Assembly (NCBI GenBank): GCA_963737155.1
Contig: CAVTRN010000002.1
Span: forward strand, 1,024,001 to 1,088,000
DNA: 64,000 bases
From: Nitrospirota bacterium
GTDB lineage: Bacteria; Nitrospirota; UBA9217
Reading direction: 5' to 3'
Below, piece after piece: positions 3,005 to 24,189 of this stretch. Position 1 is the first letter of the stretch. The number at the start of each line of letters is the position of its first letter. A program made the translations under genes and the position numbers. Under the pieces are notes generated by a model that made no database searches, had not been told where the DNA came from, and saw only the letters and a program-made list of their open reading frames with translations.

Positions 3005-6000
3005 TTGTCCGAAGGAATCAAAAACATGTACTGGTTAGTATTAACTTTGTTTTTCTTCTCAGGAGTTTGCGGACTAATTTACGAAGTTGTCTGGTCCAGA
3101 ATGATGCAGGTAATTTTAGGCAGGAGCACGCTTGCTATTGGAATCGTCCTCGCAGCCTTCATGTCGGGTCTTGCGCTCGGCAGCTATTTAATCGGGAAAT
3201 ACTCTGACCGGAGCCGGAACTCCCTGCGGCTCTATGCCTTTTATGAGATTGGCACCGGTCTTGCTGCTTTTGTCGCAACGTTCCTGCTGGGCAGGTTAAT
3301 CCCGCTCAATGTCTGGGCGCATACAAATTTTGGTAATTCACCACTGGTGCTTGCCATTTGTCAATTTTTGATCGCGTTGACCCCTCTAATGATCCCGACT
3401 ATCCTGATGGGTGCTACGCTGCCGATCCTCTCCCGTATCGTTGTCACGCAGCTGTCCAAGGTTGAACGAGACCTGGGGCGCCTCTATGCCATTAATACAG
3501 TCGGAGCGGTGATCGGAAGTCTCGCGTCCGGCTTCTTCCTCATCAAACATCTCGGTGTGCATGGTGCAGTTTATTTTGCCGTTATCGGTAATTTAGCCGT
3601 AGGAGCGCTTGCCTGGCTTGCCTCGGCACGGAGCGACATTTTGAATGCCGCTTCTCCTGCTTCTCTATCAGAAAGTTCCATCCAGCCCCCTCCCATGGAT
3701 GCGCCGACTCGGCGAAAATTCCGGATCATACTCGGGGTATTTGCCCTCTCCGGTTTTGCATCGTTTGCCTATGAGGTCTTCTGGACCCGCTCACTTGTTT
3801 TCCTTATGGGGAACACAACCTACGCCTTCTCTTTGATGCTTACAGCATTTCTGTCGGGGATTGCCCTCGGCGGATACGGGATACGTTTCGTCGCAGAGAG
3901 GTTCAGGAATCCCCTGCGTTTGTTCGCGATAATCGAGGTCCTCATCGGGATCTTTTCAGCTGCGTCTCTACCTCTACTCTTTTCCATCGTGCAGTCTGCC
4001 GTCATTAGGGCGATTATTTATCTTATGTCCGGTCATCTCGGGTTGCTTGCTTTGTCGGATTTCGGGGTTGCGCTAGTCATTATGCTCGTGCCCGCTACTC
4101 TGATCGGGGCAACTTTTCCTTTAATGGGGCGGGTATTCCTCGACGACCTGACGAATACCGGTACTACTGTGGGGAAGGTCTACGCTGTCAATACGGTTGG
4201 CAACGTTTTGGGAGCGCTGCTCTCTGGTCTCCTGATCCTGCCGCTGATGGGCATACAGAAAGGCATCCTTCTCATGGCTACCCTGAATATATTCCTGGGT
4301 ATCGTAATTGCGTTCTCCCGCCGGAAAAACGCTCTGGCAACGACAGCTGCAACTACGATCGTATTCATCGTTCTTGCTCTGGGCCTGTTCCGTACGTCAA
4401 TTAATTTCCAGTTCCCGTCGGAGAAACAAACACAACAAGATGCAGTACTTTTTTACAAGGAAGGGAGCCTTGTAACAACAAAAGTATGGACCAGCACCGA
4501 ACTCGATGACAAGATTATGAGCATCGACGGAATCAATATCGGGGGGACGGAAAACACCGATTACAAGCAGCAAATTTTGGCGCATCTGCCGAAACTATTG
4601 TTAAAATCCTACCGCTCAGAACTTTCAATCGGGCTAGGTTCGGGCATTTTGGCCGGTGAAAGTACCCGCCATGCAGGGCTGCAGAGAATGGTGTGTGTTG
4701 AGCTCGCCCGCGGTGTCGTCGAAGGAGCCCGTTACTTTTCGGAAGAAAATTTCAACATTGTCAAAAATCCCCGCGCCTGCATAGTCATCGATGATGTCAT
4801 CAATTTCCTCCATATGACAAAGGAGCGGTATGATATTATTTCTGCTGACGAAAAAACAGCGCGCCAGTATGCATCAAATTCGATGTCATACTCGAAAGAT
4901 TACTATATGCTCCTGATGCAGCATCTCACCCCCGGCGGGCTCGTCATCCAGTGGGTGCCAACGGACCTTCCATCATCCCAGTATGCCTTGGCAATAAGGA
5001 CTTTTCTCGATGCCTTCCCCCACGTGATGCTCTGGTATTTTCCGCCAGTCGGAAGATCTAACTTTACCAACACCTTTCTCGTAGGCTCCAACAAACACAT
5101 CGACATAGATCCCTCCTGGATGCGTCAGGAACTGGAAACAAATCCTGTGTCGTTTCAAGGTATTCGCAAATATGGCTTGACAACGGCCGATTCAATATTG
5201 GCTCATTTTATTGCCTCCGAAGAAACCTTGCGGCGAGCCATTCCACCTGGGCCGATAAACAGCTTCGAAATGCCTATCTATGAGTTCTATTCTCCCAGGG
5301 ACTATGCTACCCCCCGGCAGGAGAGAGAACTTACCAACCATGAGTGGCTGCTGTCTTTCCGTGGACAGGATTACGACAGATTTGTGGCAAAAGATACCAC
5401 AAGCCCTAATGCTGCCCATCTGAATGCGGCATTTCAGGCAGAAGGTGTTTTTCTCAAGGGACACGCCCTTGAGTTAAAAGGATGGAAAGATCCTACGCTG
5501 GTTCCGTATTACGAGCAGGCCATTGGTATGGCACCATGGGATATGAACCTGCGTAATGAAGTCGCCATCTCCTTCTATATCTTTGCCAAGGAATGCGCCG
5601 CGCGTGGTGATTATCCCAGAGCAGCAACATACTTTCGTCGTGCGACAGAGATATTCCCTGAGAGCCCCGAGTTTCATTATCAATACGGAGTGATGATGCT
5701 CCAGTTTATGAACAATGCGAACCCGAGCATCAAGGAGTTTCAACAAGCCTTATCGTTGAACCCAAGCTTCGTGCCTGCACTTCGGAGTTTAGGTGCAATT
5801 TATGCATCCCTCGGGAATATGGACAAGGCCCTTGAGCTATGGCAAAAAGCCCTTGCGCTTAACCCGAATGATGTAATTGCTCTCATCTTCAATGGGCAAT
5901 ATCTCATGAAGCATACGGGGAGTTCGGAGGAGGGGATGGAATACCTCCGGAGGGCGTACAGTCTGGCACCTAAAAACCCCACTGTACTCAAAGCGTATCA

Positions 6001-6010
6001 ACTTCTTTAA
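3005..6010 (+). CDS. Fused MFS-like membrane / spermidine-synthase-like SAM-binding protein with C-terminal TPRs
   Basis: Duplicated membrane module (SG..GLIYEVVW; GATLP/GATFP; LYAINTVG/VYAVNTVG), IGLGSGI motif, LTPGGLVIQW, TPR repeats. Start may be ATG 3026. Confidence 0.85.
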   Translation: MSEGIKNMYWLVLTLFFFSGVCGLIYEVVWSRMMQVILGRSTLAIGIVLAAFMSGLALGSYLIGKYSDRSRNSLRLYAFYEIGTGLAAFVATFLLGRLIPLNVWAHTNFGNSPLVLAICQFLIALTPLMIPTILMGATLPILSRIVVTQLSKVERDLGRLYAINTVGAVIGSLASGFFLIKHLGVHGAVYFAVIGNLAVGALAWLASARSDILNAASPASLSESSIQPPPMDAPTRRKFRIILGVFALSGFASFAYEVFWTRSLVFLMGNTTYAFSLMLTAFLSGIALGGYGIRFVAERFRNPLRLFAIIEVLIGIFSAASLPLLFSIVQSAVIRAIIYLMSGHLGLLALSDFGVALVIMLVPATLIGATFPLMGRVFLDDLTNTGTTVGKVYAVNTVGNVLGALLSGLLILPLMGIQKGILLMATLNIFLGIVIAFSRRKNALATTAATTIVFIVLALGLFRTSINFQFPSEKQTQQDAVLFYKEGSLVTTKVWTSTELDDKIMSIDGINIGGTENTDYKQQILAHLPKLLLKSYRSELSIGLGSGILAGESTRHAGLQRMVCVELARGVVEGARYFSEENFNIVKNPRACIVIDDVINFLHMTKERYDIISADEKTARQYASNSMSYSKDYYMLLMQHLTPGGLVIQWVPTDLPSSQYALAIRTFLDAFPHVMLWYFPPVGRSNFTNTFLVGSNKHIDIDPSWMRQELETNPVSFQGIRKYGLTTADSILAHFIASEETLRRAIPPGPINSFEMPIYEFYSPRDYATPRQERELTNHEWLLSFRGQDYDRFVAKDTTSPNAAHLNAAFQAEGVFLKGHALELKGWKDPTLVPYYEQAIGMAPWDMNLRNEVAISFYIFAKECAARGDYPRAATYFRRATEIFPESPEFHYQYGVMMLQFMNNANPSIKEFQQALSLNPSFVPALRSLGAIYASLGNMDKALELWQKALALNPNDVIALIFNGQYLMKHTGSSEEGMEYLRRAYSLAPKNPTVLKAYQLL

Positions 6011-10052: not shown

Positions 10053-10182
10053 AGCTGCAGACAACCAGGCGGCACGTCGCAAACAGCAGACAGTGGCCAG
10101 GAGCGAAAATCATACAGTAGATTTTGCCCTGGCTTTTTTCTTCGTTTCTGATTCCCTACTTTTGACTTTCCTGTATAGACCC

Positions 10183-10767
10183 ATGAAAATTCGTTCAGCC
10201 GAATTCGTTATCAGCGCACCGGGACCGAAGCAGTTTCCCATAGACAAGCGGCCGCAGATCGCCTTTGCTGGCCGCTCGAACGTCGGGAAATCGTCGATCA
10301 TCAACGCCCTGCTTCACGAGAAAAACCTGGTGAAAACGAGCCAGACGCCTGGCAAGACACAGCTGATTAATTTTTTCATTATCAATGCAGACTTCTATTT
10401 CGTCGACCTGCCGGGGTATGGATATGCCCGCGTTCCCCGTGCAGTGACCGATGGCCGGGCTCCCATGGTTGAAGGTTATTTGAAAGACTCACCGGCATTG
10501 CGTGCCGTGGTGGTCCTTCTGGACAGCCGCAGAGAACCAGATGAACGTGACCAGCGGCTTATAGAATGGCTCAGGCAGTATGATATACCGGCGATATTCT
10601 CCCTCACAAAAGCGGACAAACTGAACCGTCAAGAGGCCATTCGCGCGCAGCGTGACATTCAGGCACGCCTGGGACTGAAGGATTTGCCGTTTCTTTCGTC
10701 CTCCAAGAACGGCGAGGGAATGAGCAGCCTCTGGGGCGCGATCGTTAAACACATCGGGAAAGATTGA
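10183..10767 (+). CDS. engB: Ribosome biogenesis GTPase YihA/EngB
   Basis: GRSNVGKSS, PGKT, DLPGYG, TKADK; start moved to ATG 10183. Confidence 0.95.
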   Translation: MKIRSAEFVISAPGPKQFPIDKRPQIAFAGRSNVGKSSIINALLHEKNLVKTSQTPGKTQLINFFIINADFYFVDLPGYGYARVPRAVTDGRAPMVEGYLKDSPALRAVVVLLDSRREPDERDQRLIEWLRQYDIPAIFSLTKADKLNRQEAIRAQRDIQARLGLKDLPFLSSSKNGEGMSSLWGAIVKHIGKD

Positions 10768-11248: not shown

Positions 11249-11383
11249 GTTGGGAAACCAACAGATTGTTGGAGAACCAGCTTTAATACTGAGCGAAAAC
11301 TCGCATACTAAACTGTATTATTTGGTTTTATATATATAACATATTGATATTATTTAATATTTTGTTATGGCATTTTTTTTGCA
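11249..11383 (+). promoter_or_regulatory. Sigma54 promoter with IHF site and tandem palindromic upstream activator sites
   Basis: TGGCATTTTTTTTGCA (11368-11383; GG-N10-GC); TAACATATTGATA (11337-11349) matches the IHF consensus YAANNNNTTGATW; GTTGGgaaaCCAAC (11249-11262) and GTTGGagaaCCAGC (11268-11281). Confidence 0.7.
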
Positions 11384-11582
11384 CTAAGTACTAAGGTTTC
11401 AGTAAAATTGATTTATTCGGTCTCGATAATATTTTAAAACGCCAAACTAAATAGCATTAAAACATCTTAAGCTGATATTCCGAAAAAAGGAGGAGAGAAA
11501 TATTGACGTAATTTAGGCAGTTTTATTGTTGATGCGTGTATGCCGTGGTTTTTTAAAAATCTTAAGAAATGGAGGCAACATA

Positions 11583-14180
11583 ATGAAGACACAGTCATAC
11601 TCGAAGTTGTTGTTGTATGTTGTACTATGCTTCACACTGGTTGTCGGACTTGGCCTCATGTCTGGTTGTAAAGGTAGTAACGGTGCGGCTGGTGCGAATG
11701 GCGTCAATGGCACCAACGGAACGAATGGCGTCAATGGAACGAATGGCACCAATGGTGTCAATGGAACGAATGGCACCAATGGCGCGAATGGTATTGGCGC
11801 TTTGACATCTGTGCTAACTTATACCACGGTCATCAATAGCGTTGTTGTCACTTCCGATACCACAAGCGCATCCATGGTTATTAATTTTTCCGTTCAATAT
11901 ATAAACCCCGATACTGGCGCAGTGGGCGGCGAAATTGTTGGTCTCGACGCACCAGATTCAGTCACTGCGACGAATCTAGGTCACCTGCGGTTCAATATGG
12001 TAAAACTTATCCCGGGTCTGGCCACTGCGGGTACTTCCACTGATCTGGCTTCCAATGAGGAGTGGAACAGCTGGTGGGCGGTTGGCTCTTCGGAACGTAC
12101 TGCCGCCCGTTTGACCAACAATGGAAATGGATTGTACACATATACTACGGGAACCATGGCTGTTTCCGGGGCGACGCCAACGTACAATTTCTATGATCCC
12201 AAAGCGTACACCCGCGTCGTGCTGCTGGTGATGCCCAAAGACAATAGCGGCTCAGGCAATTTTGTATCGCCAGTCGCGATTGAGCTGGGTGAAGCCGCGA
12301 AATATGACTTTATCGGGAACAGCGGGACGCTGGTATCTGAAACGACGTCAACGCTTTCTCAAGATGTTGTCCCGACTGCACAATGTCTTAATTGCCATGC
12401 CACATTTGGCGATCCGAGACTTAACCCCTTGGCGTTCCATCCTGATGAAGGCCGCGTAGAGACTTATGCCTGCGTCGTATGCCATGACGAGAGCAACTTC
12501 ACCATGGATATTACGGCTGTCTCGAGCGGAGTTACTTACACATTCCCCTTCGGCGAAGGTGCGCTCGGGACCTGGATCCACAAGATTCATACCGCCCAGG
12601 TAATATCCACCTTCACTACCTTCACCTCGATAGAATATCCGCAGGACATCAGGAACTGCACAACTTGCCATAGCAATGGCGCGGACAGCGCCAACTGGAT
12701 GAACAGGCCGAGTGCAAAGGCATGTCTCTCTTGCCATAATCCGAATTATACACTTGACCCGGTCATTGCCGGTATGGCGGCTTTGACGTCTCCCTCGACA
12801 ACCCACGGTGGCGGTCAAATAGGCCCGATCGGCTCAGGCCTTACCAACGACACTGAGTGCTTTACTTGTCATGGTCCGGATGGTATCGAGCCTGTAGCGA
12901 AACACCACGAGACTGACTTCTCCACAACGCACAACCCCGTAGCGACCGAGCCGACTATTAGTTTTGCGATTAGCGCAATATCCGTGTCGCCTACGACGAG
13001 TGCTCCAACCATCACGTTTACGATTTATGCGGGCTTCCCGCCAGCAGCACTTACGCCTGTAACGCTTAACACCTCAGCCGGGTTTGTAGTGTCTGGTACC
13101 ACCTTTACCGCCACAAACCTTCCAGCCTCAGACCATCCCCAAACGCTGCAATTCTTATTTGCATACGCAGTGCCGCAGGACGGGATCGCGCAGCCGTCCG
13201 ACTGGAACAATCGTGCGGAAAGTTACACCGTCAATCTGTCTAGCTTAGCTAGCGGAACAACGGCAGGTACCCTGACCCATAACGCGGACGGCAGTTATAC
13301 CGCTGTCGTGAGCGCCTCTACGTTCTCGGTTCCTTCAAACGCAACGTTGTTGACGGGCGCATTATGCGGACTTTTTGAAGACGAGACCACCGGCGTGAAC
13401 ATTCCGGGACTGGCGTCCATGGTGACCGCGAAGGGTTACACACCACGGCGTGTCATCATCACTACTGCCAATTGTAATAAGTGCCACGAGCAGCTTGGCG
13501 ACCAAACTCTCGCTCCGTTGACCCCCACCTCAACTGCGGGATACAACATCCACGATGGAGCGTATGATACTCCTACATTAATGTGCGCGATGTGCCATAC
13601 TCCTGACCTGACCGGCAGTAACGGATGGTCCGCATCCTTCAGGGTCTGGTACCACGCCCTTCATGCGGATACCATACGGACTGTGGCGTTCGAAGGCAAC
13701 ACCGAGTTCCCAGCCATAGCGTATCCTGGCGTTCTGAGCAACTGCGAGCAGTGTCATCTGCCAGGCACCTACGACTTCAGCGCTTCTCAATACACACCCA
13801 GTCTTATCGCTAATTTCCTGATGATTACCGATGTGACGGGCACACCCGCAGCAAGCGCACTCAACGCGCCCTATTTTGTGGCGAATGGAGTGAATAATTA
13901 CGGCATCACTGCAGCTGTGACAAACGGCACAGCGACAGACGGAGCTGCCAACCTCGTGAGTTCGCCGATTACCGCAACATGCACGGCCTGCCACGATGCC
14001 AGCGACGCAATTGACCATATGGTGGAGAATGGCGGAGCGTTCTACGTGCCGCGCTCTACGGCATTTACCAATACTCTGTCCACCGTCAACCAGGGTGAGT
14101 CCTGCCTCGTTTGCCATGGTCCCGGCGCTATAGAGTCTATTCAGAGCGCTCACAACCATTTAATAATTCAAAATCAGTAG
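11583..14180 (+). CDS. MtrC/OmcA-family decaheme c-type cytochrome lipoprotein with collagen-like N-terminal repeat (copy 1)
   Basis: RBS GGAGG, lipobox LMSGC, 10 CxxCH motifs in two 5-heme blocks (CLNCH,CVVCH,CTTCH,CLSCH,CFTCH / CNKCH,CAMCH,CEQCH,CTACH,CLVCH) separated by beta-rich domains; IHKIH..YPQDIRNCTTCH and RR....ANC..CH signatures. Confidence 0.9.
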   Translation: MKTQSYSKLLLYVVLCFTLVVGLGLMSGCKGSNGAAGANGVNGTNGTNGVNGTNGTNGVNGTNGTNGANGIGALTSVLTYTTVINSVVVTSDTTSASMVINFSVQYINPDTGAVGGEIVGLDAPDSVTATNLGHLRFNMVKLIPGLATAGTSTDLASNEEWNSWWAVGSSERTAARLTNNGNGLYTYTTGTMAVSGATPTYNFYDPKAYTRVVLLVMPKDNSGSGNFVSPVAIELGEAAKYDFIGNSGTLVSETTSTLSQDVVPTAQCLNCHATFGDPRLNPLAFHPDEGRVETYACVVCHDESNFTMDITAVSSGVTYTFPFGEGALGTWIHKIHTAQVISTFTTFTSIEYPQDIRNCTTCHSNGADSANWMNRPSAKACLSCHNPNYTLDPVIAGMAALTSPSTTHGGGQIGPIGSGLTNDTECFTCHGPDGIEPVAKHHETDFSTTHNPVATEPTISFAISAISVSPTTSAPTITFTIYAGFPPAALTPVTLNTSAGFVVSGTTFTATNLPASDHPQTLQFLFAYAVPQDGIAQPSDWNNRAESYTVNLSSLASGTTAGTLTHNADGSYTAVVSASTFSVPSNATLLTGALCGLFEDETTGVNIPGLASMVTAKGYTPRRVIITTANCNKCHEQLGDQTLAPLTPTSTAGYNIHDGAYDTPTLMCAMCHTPDLTGSNGWSASFRVWYHALHADTIRTVAFEGNTEFPAIAYPGVLSNCEQCHLPGTYDFSASQYTPSLIANFLMITDVTGTPAASALNAPYFVANGVNNYGITAAVTNGTATDGAANLVSSPITATCTACHDASDAIDHMVENGGAFYVPRSTAFTNTLSTVNQGESCLVCHGPGAIESIQSAHNHLIIQNQ
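11673..11789 (+). repeat. Collagen-like G-X-Y repeat, 13 triplets (9/27-bp tandem DNA repeat)
   Basis: GSN GAA GAN GVN GTN GTN GVN GTN GTN GVN GTN GTN GAN just after the lipidated Cys. Confidence 0.9.
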
Positions 14181-14244
14181 GATGAGATCAGGAGAAACCG
14201 CTGAGAGCTTCTGTTAATCTCGGCGAATTGGATCTCAAGATTCT

Positions 14245-14275
14245 GGGCGGGCCCTTCGGGGCCCGCCTATTTTTT
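14245..14275 (+). terminator. Rho-independent terminator of decaheme copy 1
   Basis: gggcgggccc-ttcg-gggcccgcct followed by attttttc. Confidence 0.9.
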
Positions 14276-15176
14276 CACGCGGCATGAAAGGCAGACCGGA
14301 AACAAAGGTTTCCCAGTTTCTCGTGCTCGGATATCGTTACTCTGCTTTTGCTATTTTCTATTCGCTGTTACCCGCCTTATTGATGCAGACTGCCCAGGTA
14401 TTCAGTTTAATGCTGTTTGTCCCAGAAGGGATAGTTTGATCTTGCAAATATCTCCTGGGGGCATACTGGGTCCTACCCATCGTCGTCCGACCTAACATCG
14501 TATATATCTATGATGAGTTATCCTCGCTGATCGCGGTGCGCGAGCGCTCACACTGCCCCTGTGCAACAATCTTTGAGGCTGGGTGAGGGGACAGAATCTC
14601 GCAAAGTCTTCCCGGGACTTAATCGCGTCAGAAAGTCTCCCGCGCTAAAAGTCTGCTGAACGATGAAAAGCGTTTGCTGCATTACTCGGAGCGCATATTT
14701 TGTAAATTTTAACGGGCTTGGAATGTCCTTCATTTTGTCCTTGATTCATACCTTTTTTCGCACTATACTTCTTCTGATGTTTAACCATGTGGTTTCACTC
14801 TTGTTTAAAAAAGGTTTAATTTGGACAGTTTTTCATGACCAGGGAGTGGCTGTTCAACAAAGAGTATTCCAATATATTATAAAATAAACTACTATCAGTC
14901 TACCGAGTTGCAACACCGGCAAAATCGTAGACATCTGCGATTTCAGGCGATTATGGACGGCGTTTAAAGAATATCGGAAACTTTTTTCGAAAAATATCTT
15001 GTTATTTATACAAATCAACGACTAATCTCGTCCAAAATAGACGACAACATTGATATCCTGACTGTTTGGAGTTTAATTCGACGTCCTGCGCTCTTGGCGC
15101 AGGGTTATCCCGAATACTAAATAGCAATTTGACGGCCATGGTTTTTTTAATAATCTTAAGAATTGGAGGCAACATA

Positions 15177-17705
15177 ATGAAGACGCAGTCATTCCCTAAA
15201 TTGTTACTGTATGTTGTACTATGCTGCACACTGGTTGTCGTACTTGGCCTCATGGCTGGTTGTAAAGGTAGCAACGGTGCAGCTGGTGCGAGCATCAATG
15301 GTACCAACGGCACGAATGGCACGAATGGCACCAATGGCGTCAACGGCACGAATGGCACGAATGGCACCAATGGCGCGACTGGTATAAACACTTTGACATC
15401 GTTGTTAACTTATACCACGGTTATCCAGAGCGTTGTTTTTACTTCCGACACTACAAGCGCTTCCGCGGTTATTAATTTTTCCATAAATTATGTTGTGGAC
15501 GGCGTACCGACAAGCCAGGCAGTTTTGGGTCTCGACGCTCCAGATACCGCCACTCCAACAAATCTGGGCCACCTACGTATCAATATGGCAAAACTCCTTC
15601 CCGGCGTGCCTGATACTAGTATTGCCAGCACTACGCCGAATACCTGGTGGGCGGTTGGTGCTAGTGAACAGTCTGTCGCCCGTTTGACCAACGATGGGAA
15701 TGGCCTGTACACGTATACGACAGGAACCATGGCGATTTCCGGGCCATCGACGACGTATAATTACTACGATCCAACACAATACACCCGCGTCGTGCTGATG
15801 GTGATGCCCAAAGACCAGAGAGGCACAGGTGTTTCTGTTTCGCCAGTTCAGATTGAGCTGGGCGAAGCCGCGAAATATGATATAACGAACGGGTCATTGG
15901 TTTCCCAGGATGTTGTCCCAACCGCACAATGTCTTAATTGCCATGCGACATTTGGCGATCCGAGACTTAATCCCCTGGCATTCCATCCCGATGAAGGCCG
16001 TGTCGAGACCTATGCCTGCGTCGTATGCCATGACGAGAACAACTTCACCATGGATGTTACGTCTGTTGTAAGCGGAACGACCTTAACATTCCCCTTCGGC
16101 GAAGGGGCACTTGGTTCTTGGATCCACAAGATTCATACCGCTCAGATAATATCCACTTTCCAGACGTTTTCAACGATAGAATATCCGCAGGACATCAGGA
16201 ACTGCACAACTTGCCATAGCGGCGGCGCGGACAGCGCCAACTGGGAGAAGAAACCAAGTGCAAAGGCATGTCTCTCATGCCATAATACGGCGAATACGCT
16301 TTATCCGGAGATAGTAAACTTTGGCGCTTTGACGTCTCCCACGACAACCCATCTGGGCGGACAAATAGTTCCGGTCCCCTACGGCGTTAATTGTGGACCA
16401 AATGGACTTTGCGACGACAGAGGATGCAAGGACTGTCATTCGCCTGAATCGATTGCGGGGAATCATGAGACCGATTTCTCCACAACGCACAACCCCTTAG
16501 CGACGGAGCCGACCCTTAGTTTCGCGATTAGTGCAATATCCGTGTCGCCTACAACGAGTGCTCCAACCATCACGTTTACGATTTATGCGGGCTTTCCGCC
16601 AGCGGCACTTGCGCCGGTAACACTTAACATCTCAGGCGGGTTTGTTGTGTCTGGTACCACCTTTACCACCACAAACCTTCCGGCCTCAGACCATCCTCAA
16701 ACACCGCAAATCCTGTTTGCATACGCAGTGCCGCAGGACGGTATTGCGCAGCCGTCTGACTGGAACAATCGTGCGGAAAGTTACTTCGTCAATCTGAATA
16801 GTTTAACCAGCGGAACAACGTCAGGTACTTTGACCCAGAACGCGAACGGCAGTTATACCGCTGTCGTGAGCGCCGCTACGTTCTCGGTTCCTTCAAACGC
16901 CACGTTGTTAACGGCCGCCTTATGCGGAATTTACGAAGACACGTCCACCGGCGTGAACATTCCGGGACTTGCGTCCATGGTGACCGCGAAGGGTTACACA
17001 CCACGACGTGTAATCGTCGCTGCTGCCAATTGTGATAAGTGCCACGAGCAACTCGGCGCCCCAACGGTCACTTACAACATCCACGAGGGAGCGTATGACA
17101 TTCCAATGTGCGCGATGTGCCACACTCCCAACCTGACCGGCAGTAATGGATGGTCCGCGTCCTTCAGGGTCTGGTACCACGCCCTTCATGCGGATACTAT
17201 ACGGACTGTGGCGTTCGAAGGCAACACTGAGTTTCCAGCCATAGCGTATCCTGGCGTTCTGAGCAACTGCGAGCAGTGTCATCTGCCAGGCACCTATGAC
17301 TTCAGCGCTTCTCAATACACGCCCGGCCTCATCGCTAATTTCCTGATGAATACCGATGTGACGGGCACACCCGCAGCAAGCGCACTCAACGCTCCTTATT
17401 TTGTGGCGAATGGAGTGATTGGTTACGGCATCACCGCAGCCGTGACAAACGGCACAGCCACTGACGGAGCTGCTAACCTCGTGAGTTCGCCGATTACCGC
17501 AACATGCACGGCCTGCCACGATGCCAGCGATGCTATTGACCATATGGTGGAGAATGGCGGATCGTTCTACGTCGCGCGCTCTACGGCATTTACCACTACT
17601 CTGGACACTATCAACCAAGGCGAGTCCTGCCTCGTTTGCCATGGTCCCGGCGCGCTCGTGTCTATTCAGAGCGTTCACAATAATTTAGTAATTCAAAATC
17701 AGTAG
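15177..17705 (+). CDS. MtrC/OmcA-family decaheme c-type cytochrome lipoprotein with collagen-like repeat (copy 2, tandem paralog)
   Basis: Lipobox LMAGC; 10 CxxCH (CLNCH,CVVCH,CTTCH,CLSCH,CKDCH,CDKCH,CAMCH,CEQCH,CTACH,CLVCH); long stretches near-identical to copy 1. Confidence 0.9.
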   Translation: MKTQSFPKLLLYVVLCCTLVVVLGLMAGCKGSNGAAGASINGTNGTNGTNGTNGVNGTNGTNGTNGATGINTLTSLLTYTTVIQSVVFTSDTTSASAVINFSINYVVDGVPTSQAVLGLDAPDTATPTNLGHLRINMAKLLPGVPDTSIASTTPNTWWAVGASEQSVARLTNDGNGLYTYTTGTMAISGPSTTYNYYDPTQYTRVVLMVMPKDQRGTGVSVSPVQIELGEAAKYDITNGSLVSQDVVPTAQCLNCHATFGDPRLNPLAFHPDEGRVETYACVVCHDENNFTMDVTSVVSGTTLTFPFGEGALGSWIHKIHTAQIISTFQTFSTIEYPQDIRNCTTCHSGGADSANWEKKPSAKACLSCHNTANTLYPEIVNFGALTSPTTTHLGGQIVPVPYGVNCGPNGLCDDRGCKDCHSPESIAGNHETDFSTTHNPLATEPTLSFAISAISVSPTTSAPTITFTIYAGFPPAALAPVTLNISGGFVVSGTTFTTTNLPASDHPQTPQILFAYAVPQDGIAQPSDWNNRAESYFVNLNSLTSGTTSGTLTQNANGSYTAVVSAATFSVPSNATLLTAALCGIYEDTSTGVNIPGLASMVTAKGYTPRRVIVAAANCDKCHEQLGAPTVTYNIHEGAYDIPMCAMCHTPNLTGSNGWSASFRVWYHALHADTIRTVAFEGNTEFPAIAYPGVLSNCEQCHLPGTYDFSASQYTPGLIANFLMNTDVTGTPAASALNAPYFVANGVIGYGITAAVTNGTATDGAANLVSSPITATCTACHDASDAIDHMVENGGSFYVARSTAFTTTLDTINQGESCLVCHGPGALVSIQSVHNNLVIQNQ
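15267..15380 (+). repeat. Collagen-like (G-T-N)n repeat of copy 2
   Basis: GSN GAA GAS IN GTN GTN GTN GTN GVN GTN GTN GTN GAT. Confidence 0.9.
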
Positions 17706-17767
17706 GATGAGATCGGCAAAAATAGCCGGGAGCTTCTGTAAATCTTGGCGAATTGGATCTTAAAAAT

Positions 17768-17797
17768 ATGGGCGGGCCCTTCGGGGTCCGCCCATTT
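17768..17797 (+). terminator. Terminator hairpin of copy 2 with U-tract cut short by the intron insertion
   Basis: atgggcgggccc-ttcg-gggtccgcccat then only tt before gtgtg. Confidence 0.75.
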
Positions 17798-18832
17798 GTG
17801 TGCCGAGCATGTTTGAATGCTTGGAAGTGCTAGTCCTCTTTACCCAGCCTGATGGAGGCGAAATGTTATCGAGTCGTAAGGGCACCATCGTGAGTTGGGT
17901 GCTGAAGGAAGCGTAGAGCAAAACTGCGGCTTGAAGAACAGAAACCTGAGACGAAGCAAACGTGGTCGGACTAGCTGGCTGATGACTGCGAAGTCCGCAT
18001 CCATCAAAGGTGCACAGCGTCAATCTGTCAGGTGTACGGTGAAGGCGGTCGAACTACTTCGGGAGCTCTGGGTTGTTTCTTGAAAACAAAACTGAGGAAA
18101 CCATGAGGGTTCCTGATCCTGACGCAGAAGTCATCAAAGGGCAAGATAGACATGTGTAGTCGTCTTCCTCGATTGGGACAATCGCGCGAAAGGGAAGACA
18201 CGAATGGCCCGGCATGGTGTAAATGTAGCGGCAAATAGGACGCACGACTTATGGATGGTCAAGCGGCAAAAATCCAATTGGAACTGGCCGTTTACGGAGG
18301 CAGAAGGTAGGGATGAAGCCCTATAACGGCCGGAGAAGGGGCCGACCGTCTTCGGCGAAGAGCGCAACGAAACGCCCGGCGACCGAACAACTTAGGGCTG
18401 AGTGTGCGAGCGAGAGAACATAAGTAAGACGTTACGGATGGTCATACGCAATCAGAGGGCCCTTGGCATCGACGGGCACGATTGTTAAGGAGCTGCGGGA
18501 CTATCTGCTTTACCTTGACCCGTCATACGGGAGCAGCTCACAACCGGTCAGCATAAACCCGGGCACGGTTAAGCGCGTGACCACCTCTAGGCCGGATGGC
18601 GGGGAACACAAACTCGGCATATTCACCGCCCTCTACCGATTTATTCAGCAGACGATCCTGTAAGTGCTGCAACCAAAATGGGACAGCACGTTTAGTGACC
18701 AAAGCTGTGTGTTCCATCCCGGACGCTCGGCGTATCGGGCCGTAGACAAGGCGCAAGATAATATTGGCCAAGGCCAGGAATGGACTTGGGAGAAGTTTTT
18801 TTGGCCGAGTCAACCGCGATATGCTGATGAGG
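17798..18832 (+). mobile_element. Truncated, degenerate group II intron (class C-like)
   Basis: 5' GTGTGCCG directly after a terminator hairpin; D1-like cccagcctgatggaggcgaa...ctgaaggaagc...aacagaaacc; followed by a decayed RT; no D5/D6 seen. Confidence 0.8.
18251..18832 (+). pseudogene. ltrA: Group II intron reverse transcriptase/maturase pseudogene (N-terminal RT0-RT3 only)
   Basis: Fragments LGIDG..VKELRDYL, KRVTTSRPDGGEHKLGIFTALYRFIQQTIL*VLQPKWDSTFSDQSCVFHPGRSAYRAV, EKFFGRVNRD with stops and frameshifts. Confidence 0.85.
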
Positions 18833-18903
18833 GCTATAATACATAAAATTATTTAAATTGTTTACAAGATAATCTGCTGCGTACCATCGACATGCTTTTT
18901 CCC

Positions 18904-18932
18904 TTGATTTGTAATAGGATTTTCTGTATAGT
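18904..18932 (+). promoter_or_regulatory. Candidate sigma70 promoter for the porin-cytochrome operon
   Basis: TTGATT-N17-TATAGT. Confidence 0.4.
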
Positions 18933-19400
18933 AAAGCCGTTTTTTATAACCGTCTTCAATATCTCAAGCGGTAGGAATAGTCCTCACTCCTTAGCCTACG
19001 CCCGGAGGAATAGCAAAGACTGCACCCTTGTATTTATTGTGCTTACATAACAAGAAAGTATTATTATACGAGGCATCGTAATCAGGCTGTAGAGTGCCGC
19101 ATCCAGTTATAAAAATTTTGATTGCCAGTTTACTCACATCATAAAAGGTGATGTGCAACCTGCGTCGTATAAGAAAACTTTTGATTGATATTGCCCGGTG
19201 AGGCAAATAACCACTCAGGGGTTGCAGGTGACACCGCCTCCATGGGGCATACTCAAGCTTCCGACTACGAACTTCATGACTCATCATATGAACGTACGCG
19301 ACAAATGCGGTTGTACGATAAACAGGGTTGGTTGGCGATTGCTCCACAAAAGCAGTACGCAAGCTTTTTGTCCAGCAGTTTTTTGAAGGGAGGATACAAT

Positions 19401-20702
19401 TTGAGAAGTGATGGCATGCCGCAAAAAATGAAAAGCGGTCAACCGGCGCTGCGAACGACGTCTGCAGTAGTTCTCATTCTACTTCTTTCGCTGTGCAGCA
19501 CGTCGGGTGTTTCCATGGCAGCAAGCCTGTCCGGTGATTCCAGCACTTATTTTGAATCCAGGCAGCAAGAAGACGGTTCGCATGTTTTTGCAGGATATGA
19601 ATACCTCGATTTTGCCGTACAAGACATCGGCGCTGATACGGTTTCATTCCATACCGGCGGCTGGCTGCGTCAAGATTTCCAGACCGAAGAGTATGACACG
19701 AGATCGAACAGCGATCTTCAGTTTTCTTACCTGAGTTTCAAAAGTAAAACCGACAACACAGTAGTCAATCTTGGTCGCGTGATGGTTTTCGAGGGGGTGG
19801 CTGCAGAGAGGGTTGATGGTATTTATGCGCGAACTGATTTAGCGGCTGGTTTTGGGATGTCAGCGTTCGGCGGCATCCCGGTAGAGACCAACATAAATAT
19901 TTCCGGCAACAATGTGATTTATGGCGCGCGGCTTTTTAACCAGATGGGCAACATATACAATATAGGAATTTCAGCGCTCGAAGAGGAAAAAGACAGCCAA
20001 TCCTACCGGAAAGAAGCAGGCATCGATCTGTCGGTGCATCCGATTGATAAAGTGGATATAACTGGCAGGTCCAGTTATAACGATATCACTGACGGTTGGA
20101 TGGAAAATACCTATGTGCTATCGCTGGGGCCTTTCGCAAATATGAGGTTTGATACCACGGCATCGTGGATTAACTATGACGATTACTTCTTCCGTGTTAC
20201 TACAAGTGCTCTTTCTACAACATTGGGATTGCTCCCCCAAGGCGAAAAAGTGCGTAAGTTGGGAGAAGCGGCATCGTATCAGGTAACAGACAACGTGAGT
20301 ATCATTGCCGATTATAAAAATTTCGATTATCTCATCGAAGGCGATGCCAACTACTATGGGGCGATGGTCAAGTATTCCGTATCCGGCTCCGGCGGCGCGG
20401 GACTCGGGTATCACAGTATGAATGGAGACACGGACAGACTACGGTACAACGAGTATCGAGTCTACGGTTTTAAAAAGCTCGGCAAGGTAAATTTAACTGC
20501 AGACGTACTCGATTTGGTCTATGAAAGCCCCATCAATGGAGTAAAAGATTCCTTTTCCGGGACGCTTGCGGCCGAGTACGATCTCACGGACGCATGGAAA
20601 CTTGGCGCCGACGTTGAATATTCCCACAACCCCGATTTCAACAGAGATATCCAAACCTTTGTCAAGCTTATCTATCATTTCGGCGCCAAAGGAGGGGCTT
20701 AA
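19401..20702 (+). CDS. Outer-membrane beta-barrel porin of a porin-cytochrome conduit (ExtB/ExtE-like)
   Basis: TTG start with GGAGG RBS, signal peptide, alternating amphipathic beta-strands, C-terminal LIYHF; translationally coupled to multiheme cytochromes. Confidence 0.8.
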   Translation: MRSDGMPQKMKSGQPALRTTSAVVLILLLSLCSTSGVSMAASLSGDSSTYFESRQQEDGSHVFAGYEYLDFAVQDIGADTVSFHTGGWLRQDFQTEEYDTRSNSDLQFSYLSFKSKTDNTVVNLGRVMVFEGVAAERVDGIYARTDLAAGFGMSAFGGIPVETNINISGNNVIYGARLFNQMGNIYNIGISALEEEKDSQSYRKEAGIDLSVHPIDKVDITGRSSYNDITDGWMENTYVLSLGPFANMRFDTTASWINYDDYFFRVTTSALSTTLGLLPQGEKVRKLGEAASYQVTDNVSIIADYKNFDYLIEGDANYYGAMVKYSVSGSGGAGLGYHSMNGDTDRLRYNEYRVYGFKKLGKVNLTADVLDLVYESPINGVKDSFSGTLAAEYDLTDAWKLGADVEYSHNPDFNRDIQTFVKLIYHFGAKGGA

Positions 20703-20703
20703 G

Positions 20704-21144
20704 ATGAGGACATCTGCGTTCAAGATGTTTCTGTTGATGGCTCTCGTACCGATTCTCGGCATGTATGCCTGCGCCCATACGGCAAGTTATGCGACGTCAC
20801 ACCCCGTGGAAATAACAGGCTTCCCTATCTGCAGTGATTGCCACACGGATTGGCGGGCTGCAATGGACCACACCAGTGATTACGCGGAACGACACAGATT
20901 CTATGCAGGGCAGCATAGTGGGGCCTGCATAATATGCCACAAAGAGTCGTTCTGCTCCGACTGTCACGCACACAGGGAGGAGCTGAAGCCGAGCGACAAG
21001 TATCCGGATTCTCCGGAGCGGACGATGCCCCACCGGGGCGATTATTTAAACCAGCACAAAATCGACGGTCAGATCGACCCGGCTTCGTGCATGAAATGTC
21101 ATGGCCGATCGAATAATGAGAGGTGTGCCCAGTGTCATCATTAA
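20704..21144 (+). CDS. Pentaheme c-type cytochrome lipoprotein (ExtC/ExtF-like)
   Basis: Lipobox MYAC; 5 CxxCH (CSDCH,CIICH,CSDCH,CMKCH,CAQCH); PHRGDYL..HKIDG motif. Confidence 0.88.
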   Translation: MRTSAFKMFLLMALVPILGMYACAHTASYATSHPVEITGFPICSDCHTDWRAAMDHTSDYAERHRFYAGQHSGACIICHKESFCSDCHAHREELKPSDKYPDSPERTMPHRGDYLNQHKIDGQIDPASCMKCHGRSNNERCAQCHH

Positions 21145-22151
21145 CGAAAAGCTTGATAGCCAGCCTGCTTCTTATTGCAGGATTGTCAGCTCTAGGAGGT
21201 TGCGGCAATAGCCAAAAGAACGGACAAGCCGTGTTCTATGAGGACGATGCGCAACATCCGGCCAATTGGCTGCCTGCGGGCCACATGGCGGCCGCCCAGG
21301 CCAATGAGAGCGCCTGCACCCAATGCCACGGGAGTGATTACAGCGGAGGTATTAGCGGGGTGTCATGCACGCTGTGCCACCTCGGAGGGGTGAACTCGGT
21401 ACATCCCGTTTCGTGGGGCACGGGCAGCCAGGTTGTTCCGAATCATGGGGCCTACGTTGTGTCTAACGGGACTACCTCATGCTCGAATGTTTGGTGCCAT
21501 GGTTCCGGCCTTGTCGGCGTCACGGACAGTGGCCCCGCCTGTGTGAGCTGCCATCTCGGTGGTCTAAGCACAATATTATCAGGATGCGTTAATTGCCATG
21601 GGGTCCCGCCGAACGGGAGCGCTGATCCGAACGTCGCGGGAGCTCATGCGGTGCATAATGCGCTTCCCAACGTTACAAATGTCTGCAATACCTGCCACAA
21701 CGGCGCCGGAAGCGGAACAGTGAATCACGATAACGGCATCATTGTTGTGCAGTTCTTGAGCGTATATAGTGCAGAGAGCGGGACGGCTATATATAATGCC
21801 GCTGATAATACGTGCTCGAACGTGAGCTGCCACGGCGGCCAGACGACGCCCGTATGGCTTACTGGTTCGCTCGATGTAAGTACCCAGTGCACGTCCTGCC
21901 ATGCCTACGGCAATAGCGAGTACAACGGCTTTTATTCCGGCCAACATTATTTCCACGTGGAGGTCCTGGATTTCCAATGCACGGTATGCCACAATGTTTC
22001 ACAGCTTGCTGTAAGCCACTTCGTGTCCTTGAATACGCCAACGGTAGAAGGACTGGAGGCGCCTGCTGCTCTGACAATTCAAAGCGACGTGAATTTCAAC
22101 CCTGTTAATTTAACGTGCACACCGTCTTGCCACGCGACTCAAAATTGGTAG
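21132..22151 (+). CDS. Multiheme cytochrome c lipoprotein, ExtD-like N-half plus CxxxxCH/CxxCH domain (about 10 hemes)
   Basis: Lipobox LGGC; 7 CxxCH, 2 CX4CH (CSNVWCH, CSNVSCH), 1 CX3CH (CTPSCH); GTG start overlaps the upstream gene. Confidence 0.85.
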   Translation: MSSLTKSLIASLLLIAGLSALGGCGNSQKNGQAVFYEDDAQHPANWLPAGHMAAAQANESACTQCHGSDYSGGISGVSCTLCHLGGVNSVHPVSWGTGSQVVPNHGAYVVSNGTTSCSNVWCHGSGLVGVTDSGPACVSCHLGGLSTILSGCVNCHGVPPNGSADPNVAGAHAVHNALPNVTNVCNTCHNGAGSGTVNHDNGIIVVQFLSVYSAESGTAIYNAADNTCSNVSCHGGQTTPVWLTGSLDVSTQCTSCHAYGNSEYNGFYSGQHYFHVEVLDFQCTVCHNVSQLAVSHFVSLNTPTVEGLEAPAALTIQSDVNFNPVNLTCTPSCHATQNW

Positions 22152-22204
22152 TATCAGTTTTACACGGGGATGTTATATAATTGAGAAGGATCAATATATG
22201 GAGG

Positions 22205-22235
22205 AGGCCCGGGTTTCTGTCCGGGCTTTCTTTTT
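22205..22235 (+). terminator. Rho-independent terminator after the conduit operon
   Basis: aggcccgg-N8-ccgggctt followed by tcttttt. Confidence 0.7.
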
Positions 22236-22283
22236 GTGAGATTGCAAACGATCGCATTATGAATAAATGTCGGAAGGAGAATA

Positions 22284-22634
22284 ATGGTGAAAAAAGAAGT
22301 GAGATCTCTGATGATTGTAGTGCTGATTGCATTCGCTATCAATGGGGCAGGATGTTCCAAATTTTTTGGGCCATCCAACGATGAAGTAATTAAGGCGATA
22401 AACGACAGCGGAAGACTCAAAGGCAATGCTTTTACTGTGACAGCGCCGATTGAAGTTGTGGAAAAAGGGAGCAGAAAGGATGATGGAGGCTGGCCTGTCA
22501 CCGTCAAACTTAAGTTGAGTGTTAAGATGGGAAATGGTCAGATAAGGCAGCTTGAAACAAAAACGAATTTTAGAATATATAAATCAGAGGACAGCACAGG
22601 TAAAACTGTCTGGACGGCGAAATTAGGCAAGTAA
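22284..22634 (+). CDS. Small lipoprotein of unknown function
   Basis: RBS AAGGAG, signal peptide with lipobox GAGC, 116 aa. Confidence 0.75.
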   Translation: MVKKEVRSLMIVVLIAFAINGAGCSKFFGPSNDEVIKAINDSGRLKGNAFTVTAPIEVVEKGSRKDDGGWPVTVKLKLSVKMGNGQIRQLETKTNFRIYKSEDSTGKTVWTAKLGK

Positions 22635-22755
22635 CGGTCGGTAGCGGACGTCTGTTTTTTCTCGAGGATCGAGATCCTGAAGAGGGGCTGTGGAATGACC
22701 TGCGGCTCCTCTTCTGTTAATTCAGACCTTTATTGTTCATGGCTTTTAAACAATC

Positions 22756-23250
22756 CTAATCATCTATGTTCGATGATGGCGCTCGTATCCGATTTCGCGC
22801 TCGTCCAGAGACTTGGTTATACTCTGGTGAGATTGGAGCAGGGAAATTAAACATTTTTTCATGGGAAATAAACATATCATTGAGAGTACCGTCGGTCGCT
22901 TTGAGTGAGATACTGTCGTCCCGCACTTGGACGAGCTGTGACCCATCCGGCAATTTCTCGAATAATCTGAAAAAGGATTGCTCACCTTTCGCAACGATAA
23001 CAACCGCACCGGAAAAATCCCCGCTATGTATCGTGCCAATGAGTTTGTATCCTGACTGAGCGGCGACCTGGCCATACACCTGATCAATCAAGGAAAGCGG
23101 CAGAAAGAAGAGGAGGCAAATCAGAACCAAATTCCTGATTGCTGCATTTTTGATGGTTGCGAAGTGTATCATTGCATAAACTTTCAAAACACTTCCGTGT
23201 TCATTCCCTGCTAGCAACGAAGACATGAGAATAGTGATATAGCTTTCCAT
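22756..23250 (-). CDS. GspC/PilP-like HR-domain protein (type II secretion protein C-like, no PDZ)
   Basis: One TM segment, then YKLIGTI....SGAVV....GEQSFFRL.EKLPDGSQLVQVRDDSISL pattern; start may be ATG 23172. Confidence 0.55.
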   Translation of the reverse strand: MESYITILMSSLLAGNEHGSVLKVYAMIHFATIKNAAIRNLVLICLLFFLPLSLIDQVYGQVAAQSGYKLIGTIHSGDFSGAVVIVAKGEQSFFRLFEKLPDGSQLVQVRDDSISLKATDGTLNDMFISHEKMFNFPAPISPEYNQVSGRARNRIRAPSSNIDD

Positions 23251-23307: not shown

Positions 23308-24189
23308 TTAGAGCGTAATCTCTGTTCCAACGCCCTCTTTGGTGAAGATCTCAAGCAGCAGAGCGTGGGGAACGCGGCCGTCTATGATGTGGACTTTAAC
23401 ACACCCGGCATCGAGGGCATCGAAGCAGGACTTTGTCTTCGGCAGCATGCCACCGGCTATGATACCACTGGCGACGAGCAATTCCACTTTTTTCTTGTTC
23501 AACGTGGGAATGAGTTTATTGTCTTTGTCCAGGATTCCCGTCTGGTCCGTCAAGAGGATTAGTTTTTCTGCCTTGAGCGCTCCTGCAACCGCACCCGCAA
23601 CAAGATCAGCGTTGATGTTGTAAGTTTCTCCGTGTTCCCCGACCCCGACGGGTGCGATAATGGATATGAATCCGCCCTGATCAAGCGCTGCAATAGCGCC
23701 AGGCCTCACTTCAGTCACCTCGCCGACCAAGCCGATGTCGATAATTTCGGTTTCTCCGGTTTCGTCCGATTTTTTGGAGAGTCTTAACTTGCGCGCCTGG
23801 ATCAATCCGCCATCCTTGCCGGTCAGTCCGACAGCCTTGCCGCCTGACTGATTGATGAGGTTGACGATCTCTTTGTTGACTTTGCCGCCGAGGACCATTT
23901 CGACGATATCCATTGTTTCTTCATCAGTCACCCGCTGGCCAGCGACAAAGGTCGGCTTCTTGCCCATCCGTTCCATGGTCCTGCCGATCTGCGGACCGCC
24001 GCCATGAACAATCACCGGATTGATCCCGATGTAACGAAGAAGCACGACGTCACGAGCAAAGTCCTGTTTGAGGCCCTCATCGATCATGGCATTGCCGCCG
24101 TATTTGATCACGAAAGTCTTGCCCCGGAAGGTCTGGATATAGGGCATGGCCTCGATCAGGATCTTCGCTTTTTCAATCAGTATTTGCAT
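23308..24189 (-). CDS. argB: Acetylglutamate kinase
   Basis: [35 protein letters not shown]. Confidence 0.97.

Follow-up and report, generated by a model that had tools for sequence, protein, structure and literature searches.

A probable pcc/Ext-type porin-cytochrome locus with neighbouring MtrC-type decaheme cytochromes in a Nitrospirota bacterium

A 64,000-nucleotide stretch of a Nitrospirota genome (contig CAVTRN010000002.1, positions 1,024,001 to 1,088,000; here called the window, with coordinates counted from its first nucleotide) carries six co-oriented genes on the plus strand between engB and argB, including four for multiheme cytochromes. The reading that we favour, and hold to be probable, is that this locus is a porin-cytochrome conduit of the Geobacter pcc/Ext type, in which a conserved core of barrel and pentaheme is combined with exchangeable, separately transcribed MtrC-type surface decahemes. 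The kind of machine is not new: both halves have been published, as have hints that they occur together. To judge from sequence comparisons, however, the layout appears to be a recurrent and under-described standard design in uncultured Nitrospirota and in relatives of Geobacter, not a one-off hybrid.

The locus begins with two decaheme cytochromes, decaheme A (11583-14180; 865 aa, ten CXXCH motifs arranged 5+5) and decaheme B (15177-17705; 842 aa, ten CXXCH), and continues with an outer-membrane beta-barrel protein with a signal peptide (19416-20702; 428 aa, no heme motifs), a pentaheme cytochrome (20704-21144; 146 aa, five CXXCH), a last cytochrome designated D10 (21123-22151; 342 aa, with seven CXXCH, one CX3CH and two CX4CH) and a small open reading frame, or ORF (22284-22634; 116 aa, no heme motifs). 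The four cytochromes hold 35 heme motifs in total, and a six-frame scan of the 64 kb (stop to stop, at least 60 aa) returned them as the only four frames with two or more CXXCH; because there is no other multiheme frame in the window, this clustering lies far beyond chance. Each cytochrome has a lipobox-like tetrapeptide and Cys behind a hydrophobic N-terminus (LMSGC, LMAGC, GMYAC and LGGC), read from the sequence with a lipobox pattern that we take to mark the lipid-anchor Cys. The gene content, strand, motif total and lipid sites given in the initial annotation of this DNA were thus all recovered. The span that it proposed, 11249-23250, does enclose the genes, although it starts 334 nt ahead of the first start codon and its last part (22152-23250) holds non-cytochrome ORFs.

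Both decahemes exceed the cutoff of the OmcA/MtrC model TIGR03507 (266.8 bits for A and 274.6 for B, against 209.3), with nearly the full model aligned, and each matches PF22113, the MtrC/MtrF pentaheme domain, in two stretches (151.4 bits in A, 150 in B). Their ten CXXCH lie in two pentaheme domains (II and IV); in A the motifs occupy residues 268-426 and 631-841 counted from the start at 11583, equivalent to 287-445 and 650-860 in the ORF from 11526. A and B are accordingly classed, by these profile matches, as members of the OmcA/MtrC family, in agreement with the initial annotation. B is a tandem paralogue of A with 78% identity (BLASTP, 681/872), and the duplicated DNA starts at 11549 and 15143, about 34 nt ahead of the start codons. 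With Shewanella MtrCAB/OmcA they share the form of surface decaheme lipoproteins of the TIGR03507 family, the 5+5 hemes, the two PF22113 domains and, as for mtrC and omcA, an arrangement as tandem paralogues. Where beta-barrel domains I and III would be expected from Shewanella MtrC, the approximately 190-200 non-heme residues ahead of each pentaheme block have no Pfam match to the beta-barrel models PF22112 and PF22111, which are carried by more distant decaheme relatives. The third domain of MtrC has a disulfide; mature decaheme A contains a single non-heme Cys, and hence no Cys pair in that domain.

A further difference from MtrC is that a collagen-like tether replaces the short linker. In decaheme A a (Gly-X-Y)14 run (11673-11798, plus strand) directly follows the lipobox-like Cys, and decaheme B has a run of at least ten Gly-X-Y triplets (about 15265-15385, plus strand). 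PF01391 (Collagen) scores 27.7 bits in A, just over its cutoff of 27.2, and 23.2 bits in B, and the underlying DNA shows tandem repeats of 9/27 nt (11697-11791 and 15292-15382). Were the run to fold into a triple helix, the cytochromes would be trimerised and stand several nanometres away from the membrane. Runs of 5-15 triplets, some proline-rich, also occur in Nitrospirota relatives (loci L001, L004, L005, L006, L007, L011 and L026 of the survey described below), and none was seen in the Geobacteraceae decahemes of the related loci. We found no report of collagen-like tethers on decahemes in the literature searched, in which one search was poorly framed.

The usual partners of MtrC are not found alongside these decahemes. 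No protein in the window comes near the cutoff of the MtrA model (TIGR03508, at most 23.7 bits against 192.2), in line with the earlier claim that MtrA/DmsE is missing, and within the 64 kb there is neither an adjacent MtrA/DmsE-type decaheme nor an MtrB-type barrel; MtrB-like barrels have about 700 aa, compared with 428 aa here. An AlphaFold2 model of the window barrel has 22 strands (pLDDT 81.3, pTM 0.73), and a fold search of the PDB with it returned generic barrels and pilus ushers only (TMq at most 0.54), indicating no specific kinship, with no MtrB chain among the best 50 matches. The barrel has no Pfam or NCBIfam match. Sequence searches of the PDB with the barrel, the pentaheme, decaheme A and D10 found no relevant match, the hits being to a phosphatase (E 0.07), DnaJ (E 0.03) and a low-complexity fibril.

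The order of barrel, 5-heme cytochrome and larger cytochrome is that of the Geobacter pcc/Ext clusters. GM18_3461-3463 and 3467-3469 of Geobacter sp. M18 are described as duplicated pcc clusters by Shi et al. 2014 (PMC4245776), and extABCD and extEFG were defined by Jiménez Otero 2018 (PMC6148476). As in ExtEFG and the M18 pcc type, the last cytochrome of the window core carries CX3-4CH motifs; atypical heme motifs are noted in GSU_2724 too (PMC4245776). D10 also matches the Geobacter CxxxxCH/CxxCH domain (TIGR01904, 34.4 bits against a cutoff of 27). The predicted strand number of ExtE, about 21, is similar to the 22 of the window barrel, whereas ExtB is predicted to have 18 (PMC6148476). The likeness to ExtABCD extends to the lipid sites, which there too are present on the 5-heme protein and on the larger cytochrome after it; ExtG, in contrast, is described as a periplasmic dodecaheme lacking a lipid anchor, where D10 has a lipobox-like site and ten motifs. 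Of the proposal that the conduit is ExtBCD-like, the layout therefore stands, but the CX3-4CH motifs favour the ExtEFG or M18 pcc type. The OmbB-OmaB-OmcB complex of G. sulfurreducens follows the same general logic of a barrel with an inner cytochrome and an outer lipoprotein cytochrome, although its inner partner is a soluble octaheme and its outer one has 12 hemes; according to Jiménez Otero 2018, the Ext and OmcB complexes have no homology (PMC6148476).

The window differs from the Geobacter pcc/extEFG clusters in its Nitrospirota host and in the two collagen-tethered OmcA/MtrC-family genes upstream, and from ExtABCD in that neither the locus nor the 64 kb encodes a periplasmic dodecaheme resembling ExtA. 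Indeed the multiheme frame scan detected no soluble periplasmic cytochrome, of the ExtA or the ExtG kind, at the locus or elsewhere in the window. The earlier claim of a missing periplasmic partner is therefore correct for the locus and the 64 kb; in some Desulfuromonadales with extBCD, extA is located elsewhere in the genome (PMC6148476). The absence is also a matter of the model adopted, because Shi et al. 2014 take the 5-heme protein as the periplasm-side member (PMC4245776). Neither feature that had seemed odd – an extBCD set lacking extA, and a decaheme near the porin – is peculiar to this locus: the legend to Fig. 9 of Jiménez Otero 2018 gives, for Desulfuromonadales, extBCD with no extA nearby and relatives of extEFG with a lipoprotein decaheme upstream of extE (PMC6148476).

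Database searches with the barrel and the pentaheme returned 420 and 568 homologues, respectively. The G. sulfurreducens Ext proteins are absent among the best 120 homologues listed in these searches, all of which are closer relatives; the 120 listed for the pentaheme are 61-100% identical to it and are named at most "cytochrome C". Atlas matches of the pentaheme fall in Nitrospirota and Thermodesulfobacteriota clusters only. The Geobacter strains M18, M21 and bemidjiensis are presumably kin of the Geomonas-like loci recovered below. In the supplementary table of PMC6148476, ExtC and ExtF are 49% identical, proteins of these three strains at 43-46% to ExtF are listed under ExtF and not under ExtC, and GM18_3462 and 3468 appear as ExtF homologues at 42.9%.

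We compared 60 related loci, one genome per species, collected by a barrel alignment scan with two barrel peptide patterns, which samples this barrel subfamily only; they are referred to by L numbers. Nitrospirota account for 38 and Geobacterales/Desulfuromonadales for 22 (one labelled Deltaproteobacteria), and G. sulfurreducens is not among them. The core is strongly conserved: the pentaheme lies directly 3' of the barrel in all 58 loci with at least 500 nt downstream, and of the 52 with at least 2 kb downstream, 50 have a multiheme ORF after the pentaheme, which in 46 cases bears CX3-4CH motifs. The chromosomal site is conserved in Nitrospirota as well, with argB present in 25 loci, engB in 14 and both in 13, many of the contigs being short. 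On the barrel tree the window barrel is nested in the Nitrospirota clade, and the two phyla are parted by one branch with support 100. A nearby multiheme ORF lacking a lipobox-like Cys was seen, in a loose motif screen, in only two of the 60 loci (L020 and L042). In the closest locus, L001, the layout is likewise found between engB and argB, with a single decaheme. Identities to L001 fall from argB (95%) and engB (86%) through the pentaheme (81%), barrel (77%) and small ORF (76%) to the decahemes (69-71%) and D10 (53%), a gradient in keeping with a pentaheme that is buried and outer cytochromes that are exposed. Together with the position of the barrel on its tree, the argB and engB values, which are to a Nitrospirota metagenome-assembled genome, bear out the host assignment that had been made from the letters of the sequence.

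The pentaheme, which is ExtC/ExtF-like, is the most conserved member of the cluster. In an alignment of 60 sequences with a mean column identity of 63%, all five CXXCH and five further histidines (H33, H56, H64, H110 and H118) are invariant, enough for five bis-His hemes, and the Geobacterales/Desulfuromonadales copies are 49-63% identical to that of the window. It matches no Pfam or NCBIfam family above threshold. Its profile does match the C-terminal part of many proteins of ~345 aa with 12-14 CXXCH, most of the examined ones having 13. In these the pentaheme-like part comes after two c7-type triheme modules, and some of them are lipoproteins; larger fusions of 500-836 aa match as well. The pentaheme thus appears, by profile comparison, to be a widespread building block. 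The idea that it is half of an MtrA was considered and rejected, as the ~345-aa proteins have c7-type modules and score at most 37.6 bits with TIGR03508, below its cutoff.

We screened the large multiheme ORFs near the barrels (49 + 25 ORFs) with NCBIfam and Pfam, calling a neighbour MtrC-like if it reached the TIGR03507 cutoff or at least 30 bits with PF22113. TIGR03507 is at or above cutoff beside the core in 20 of the 60 loci (12 Nitrospirota, 8 Geobacterales), and in four more it is below cutoff but with E of 1e-27 or less (L002, at a contig edge, L007, L053 and, as fragments, L009). By the combined definition an MtrC-like neighbour is present in 33 of the 60 loci – 19/38 Nitrospirota and 14/22 Geobacterales/Desulfuromonadales – and in 33 of the 38 that have any large multiheme ORF; where flanks are full (at least 6 kb upstream and 7 kb downstream) the proportion is 21/31. 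Five loci have a large cytochrome with no PF22113 call (L028, L040, L054, L059 and, at 29.8 bits, L058). In Nitrospirota the MtrC-like cytochrome precedes the barrel, whereas in Geomonas-like loci it follows 1.5-2.5 kb downstream; two of the latter loci, L041 and L052, contain tandem duplicated cores with decahemes in between, similar to the tandem duplication with intervening genes in the M18 pcc clusters. Soares et al. 2024 report 57 MtrC/OmcA-like structures in Desulfuromonadia and judge them unassociated with porin complexes (PMC11492766); the Geomonas-like loci suggest a porin association for at least part of that set.

In L004, L013, L014, L016, L027, L031, L037, L048, L054 and L058 the slot next to the core is taken by lipoprotein cytochromes of another class, which are ~900 aa long and have 8-10 hemes. 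Most have an N-terminal carboxypeptidase-regulatory-like domain, for which L004 has a collagen-like run instead, and all except L054 and L058 (29.8 bits) have one PF22113 domain of at least 30 bits.

The recurrence of the combination in 33 loci of two phyla runs counter to the initial annotation, which had described the locus as chimeric and unusual among its kin. A recent chimera, in which transfer joined an Mtr-type module to an Ext-type one in this genome alone, is now highly improbable. The barrel and decaheme trees are incongruent, so outer cytochromes do move, and the decaheme is duplicated here and single in L001, both of which such an event would accommodate. Yet synteny largely refutes the idea, as L001 shares both the arrangement and the engB-argB position, with decaheme identities of 69-71%; half of the Nitrospirota loci have an MtrC-like neighbour, and the GC content over the locus (0.45-0.54) is inside the range of the window. 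The decaheme tree (25 rows, some with long branches) requires three phylum changes, with Nitrospirota L022/L026 grouping with Geobacteraceae and L053 with a Nitrospirota clade, and the presence of an OmcA/MtrC neighbour changes 14 times on the barrel tree, a number inflated by truncated contigs. Because the two trees disagree, we read the core as apparently inherited vertically and the outer-cytochrome slot as exchangeable.

Several observations weigh against the reading that we favour. Decahemes A and B each form a transcription unit of their own, closed by a terminator-like hairpin: an intrinsic-terminator-like hairpin of 11 pairs (9 GC) with a T run follows A (14244-14269, plus strand), and sequence comparison places the same hairpin after B (17770-17793, plus strand), where the T run is interrupted by an intron. 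A non-coding stretch of 1.7 kb (17706-19415) that contains this intron, and that the initial annotation does not mention, parts B from the barrel, and the decahemes are hence not co-transcribed with it. Ten of the 31 full-flank loci, including L008, have the core with no MtrC-like neighbour at all, and the core can therefore stand alone. Many of the Nitrospirota loci share descent, and their counts are not independent events. The model of the pentaheme is poor (pLDDT 61.9, with no PDB fold matches). Homology to the G. sulfurreducens Ext proteins is indirect, running in a chain through the Geomonas-like loci and a published table. Finally, Shi et al. 2014 and Jiménez Otero 2018 disagree on the membrane face of each lipoprotein: the 5-heme protein is periplasm-side in the former, as above, whereas in the latter ExtF is an outer-membrane lipoprotein and ExtG is periplasmic (PMC4245776, PMC6148476).

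The separate transcription units and the solitary cores would both be expected if the two sets of genes were neighbours and not partners. Barrel, pentaheme and D10 would then be a self-sufficient conduit, the decahemes would be free-standing in the manner of Shewanella OmcA/UndA and fed by any conduit or by an Mtr-type one elsewhere, and the engB-argB interval would simply be the place at which genes for extracellular electron transfer are kept in this lineage. We regard this as rather unlikely, although it is the most serious of the alternatives. The pairing recurs in two phyla with differing gene order and incongruent trees, which is hard to account for in the absence of selection for proximity; where TIGR03507 is lacking, another large PF22113-bearing lipoprotein is usually in the same slot; and there is no second conduit in the 64 kb. 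The repeated association is, in our view, evidence for functional coupling, if not proof of it.

If decahemes and core do form one conduit, the pentaheme would be reduced by periplasmic carriers encoded elsewhere while anchored by its lipid to the periplasmic side of the outer membrane, within or below the barrel. Electrons would pass from it to D10 on the outer face, and onward to the collagen-tethered decahemes, which would contact minerals, humics, electrodes or partner cells. The pentaheme is placed as the membrane-spanning or inner member because it is the most conserved protein, is small, has the makings of five bis-His hemes and always adjoins the barrel; D10 and the decahemes are placed as exposed because they are fastest-evolving, modular and exchanged. 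The sequence does not reveal which way the electrons flow. The opposite direction, with electrons imported from a syntrophic partner, a cathode, Fe(II) or Mn(II) in the manner of MtoAB/PioAB, seems to us unlikely; it is a question of direction only and is compatible with the proposed architecture. Porin-cytochrome systems run either way, with mtr clusters taking part in Fe(II) oxidation (PMC4245776), and nothing in the window fixes the energy metabolism of the host. However, the mtr clusters of Fe(II) oxidation are said to lack mtrC (PMC4245776), whereas this locus has two large outer cytochromes, and the closest characterised clusters, extEFG and extABCD, were studied in reduction; extEFG alone supports more than 60% of wild-type Fe(III) oxide reduction (PMC6148476).

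More tentatively, and with somewhat less than even confidence, we propose that the MtrC family is not bound to MtrAB, and that its members may serve, in Nitrospirota and Geobacterales, as regular outer partners of an unrelated core of pentaheme and 22-strand barrel, those of Nitrospirota standing on collagen-like, possibly trimeric stalks of several nanometres. If so, this would be a distinct and widespread class of conduit, and many uncultured Nitrospirota of soil, sediment and groundwater would be candidates for mineral respiration or direct interspecies electron transfer. In work on extracellular electron transfer, Mtr of Shewanella and Pcc/Ext of Geobacter are handled as two distinct systems, and iron reduction is called by tools from Mtr or Omc markers; in the window locus and its 60 relatives the two parts lists appear to be routinely combined, as an Ext-type core with swappable MtrC-like outer cytochromes. 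Baker 2022 and PMC12133095 treat canonical mtrCAB, Nitrospirae are not mentioned in the available text of Shi et al. 2014 (PMC4245776), and the literature searched yielded no description of this cluster in Nitrospirota. Its presence at a fixed chromosomal site in many uncultured members of the phylum offers a concrete module for assigning electron-transfer capacity, and the exchange of outer cytochromes on a fixed core is a natural experiment that also bears on the disagreement over the membrane face of the Ext pentaheme. The main import would be a reassignment of the partners of MtrC-family cytochromes and the flagging of uncultured Nitrospirota as candidates for extracellular electron transfer.

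Other features of the locus are as follows. The small ORF at 22284-22634 encodes a conserved secreted protein or lipoprotein with no Pfam or NCBIfam match, which tblastn locates alongside the module in 12 loci of Nitrospirota, some with a second copy, and it is probably the last gene of the barrel operon. A terminator-like hairpin of 15 pairs (8 GC) closes the unit of barrel, pentaheme, D10 and small ORF (22679-22714, plus strand). Within D10, a two-heme module of ~60 aa has been gained or lost among relatives. A minimal version of the locus is present in L008 (6076-7768), where only barrel and pentaheme lie between engB and argB, with neither a third cytochrome nor a large neighbour.

The intron in the stretch between decaheme B and the barrel, which does not belong to the conduit, is a truncated or decayed group II intron (17797 to about 18760, plus strand) consisting of 5' domains and a broken reverse-transcriptase frame. 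RF02001 matches at 17884-18053 with 81.7 bits, and blastn aligns window ~17796 to ~18756 with plasmid group II introns over ltrA, covering 27% of the query. No intact ORF and no 3' domains were found in it, and the broken frames have no Pfam match, the reverse-transcriptase reading resting on RF02001 and blastn. The intron is missing from L001, L002 and L007.

The locus is flanked by the gene for a YihA/EngB GTPase (10180-10767; TIGR03598, 207 bits) and by that for ArgB (23308-24189, minus strand; TIGR00761, 248 bits). A minus-strand ORF at 22756-23250 is conserved beside argB and is not a cytochrome; its match to a type II secretion C protein (PF11356, 18.3 bits) is below the cutoff of 27, and we do not claim that assignment. 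The remaining window holds housekeeping genes, namely tig, clpP, clpX, hslUV, a xerC-like gene, topA, amino-acid biosynthesis genes, fusA and mutL. It also includes, at 3005-6010 on the plus strand, a gene for a 1001-aa protein unrelated to the conduit, in which a membrane part like that of the major facilitator superfamily is joined to a spermidine-synthase-like domain and C-terminal tetratricopeptide repeats.

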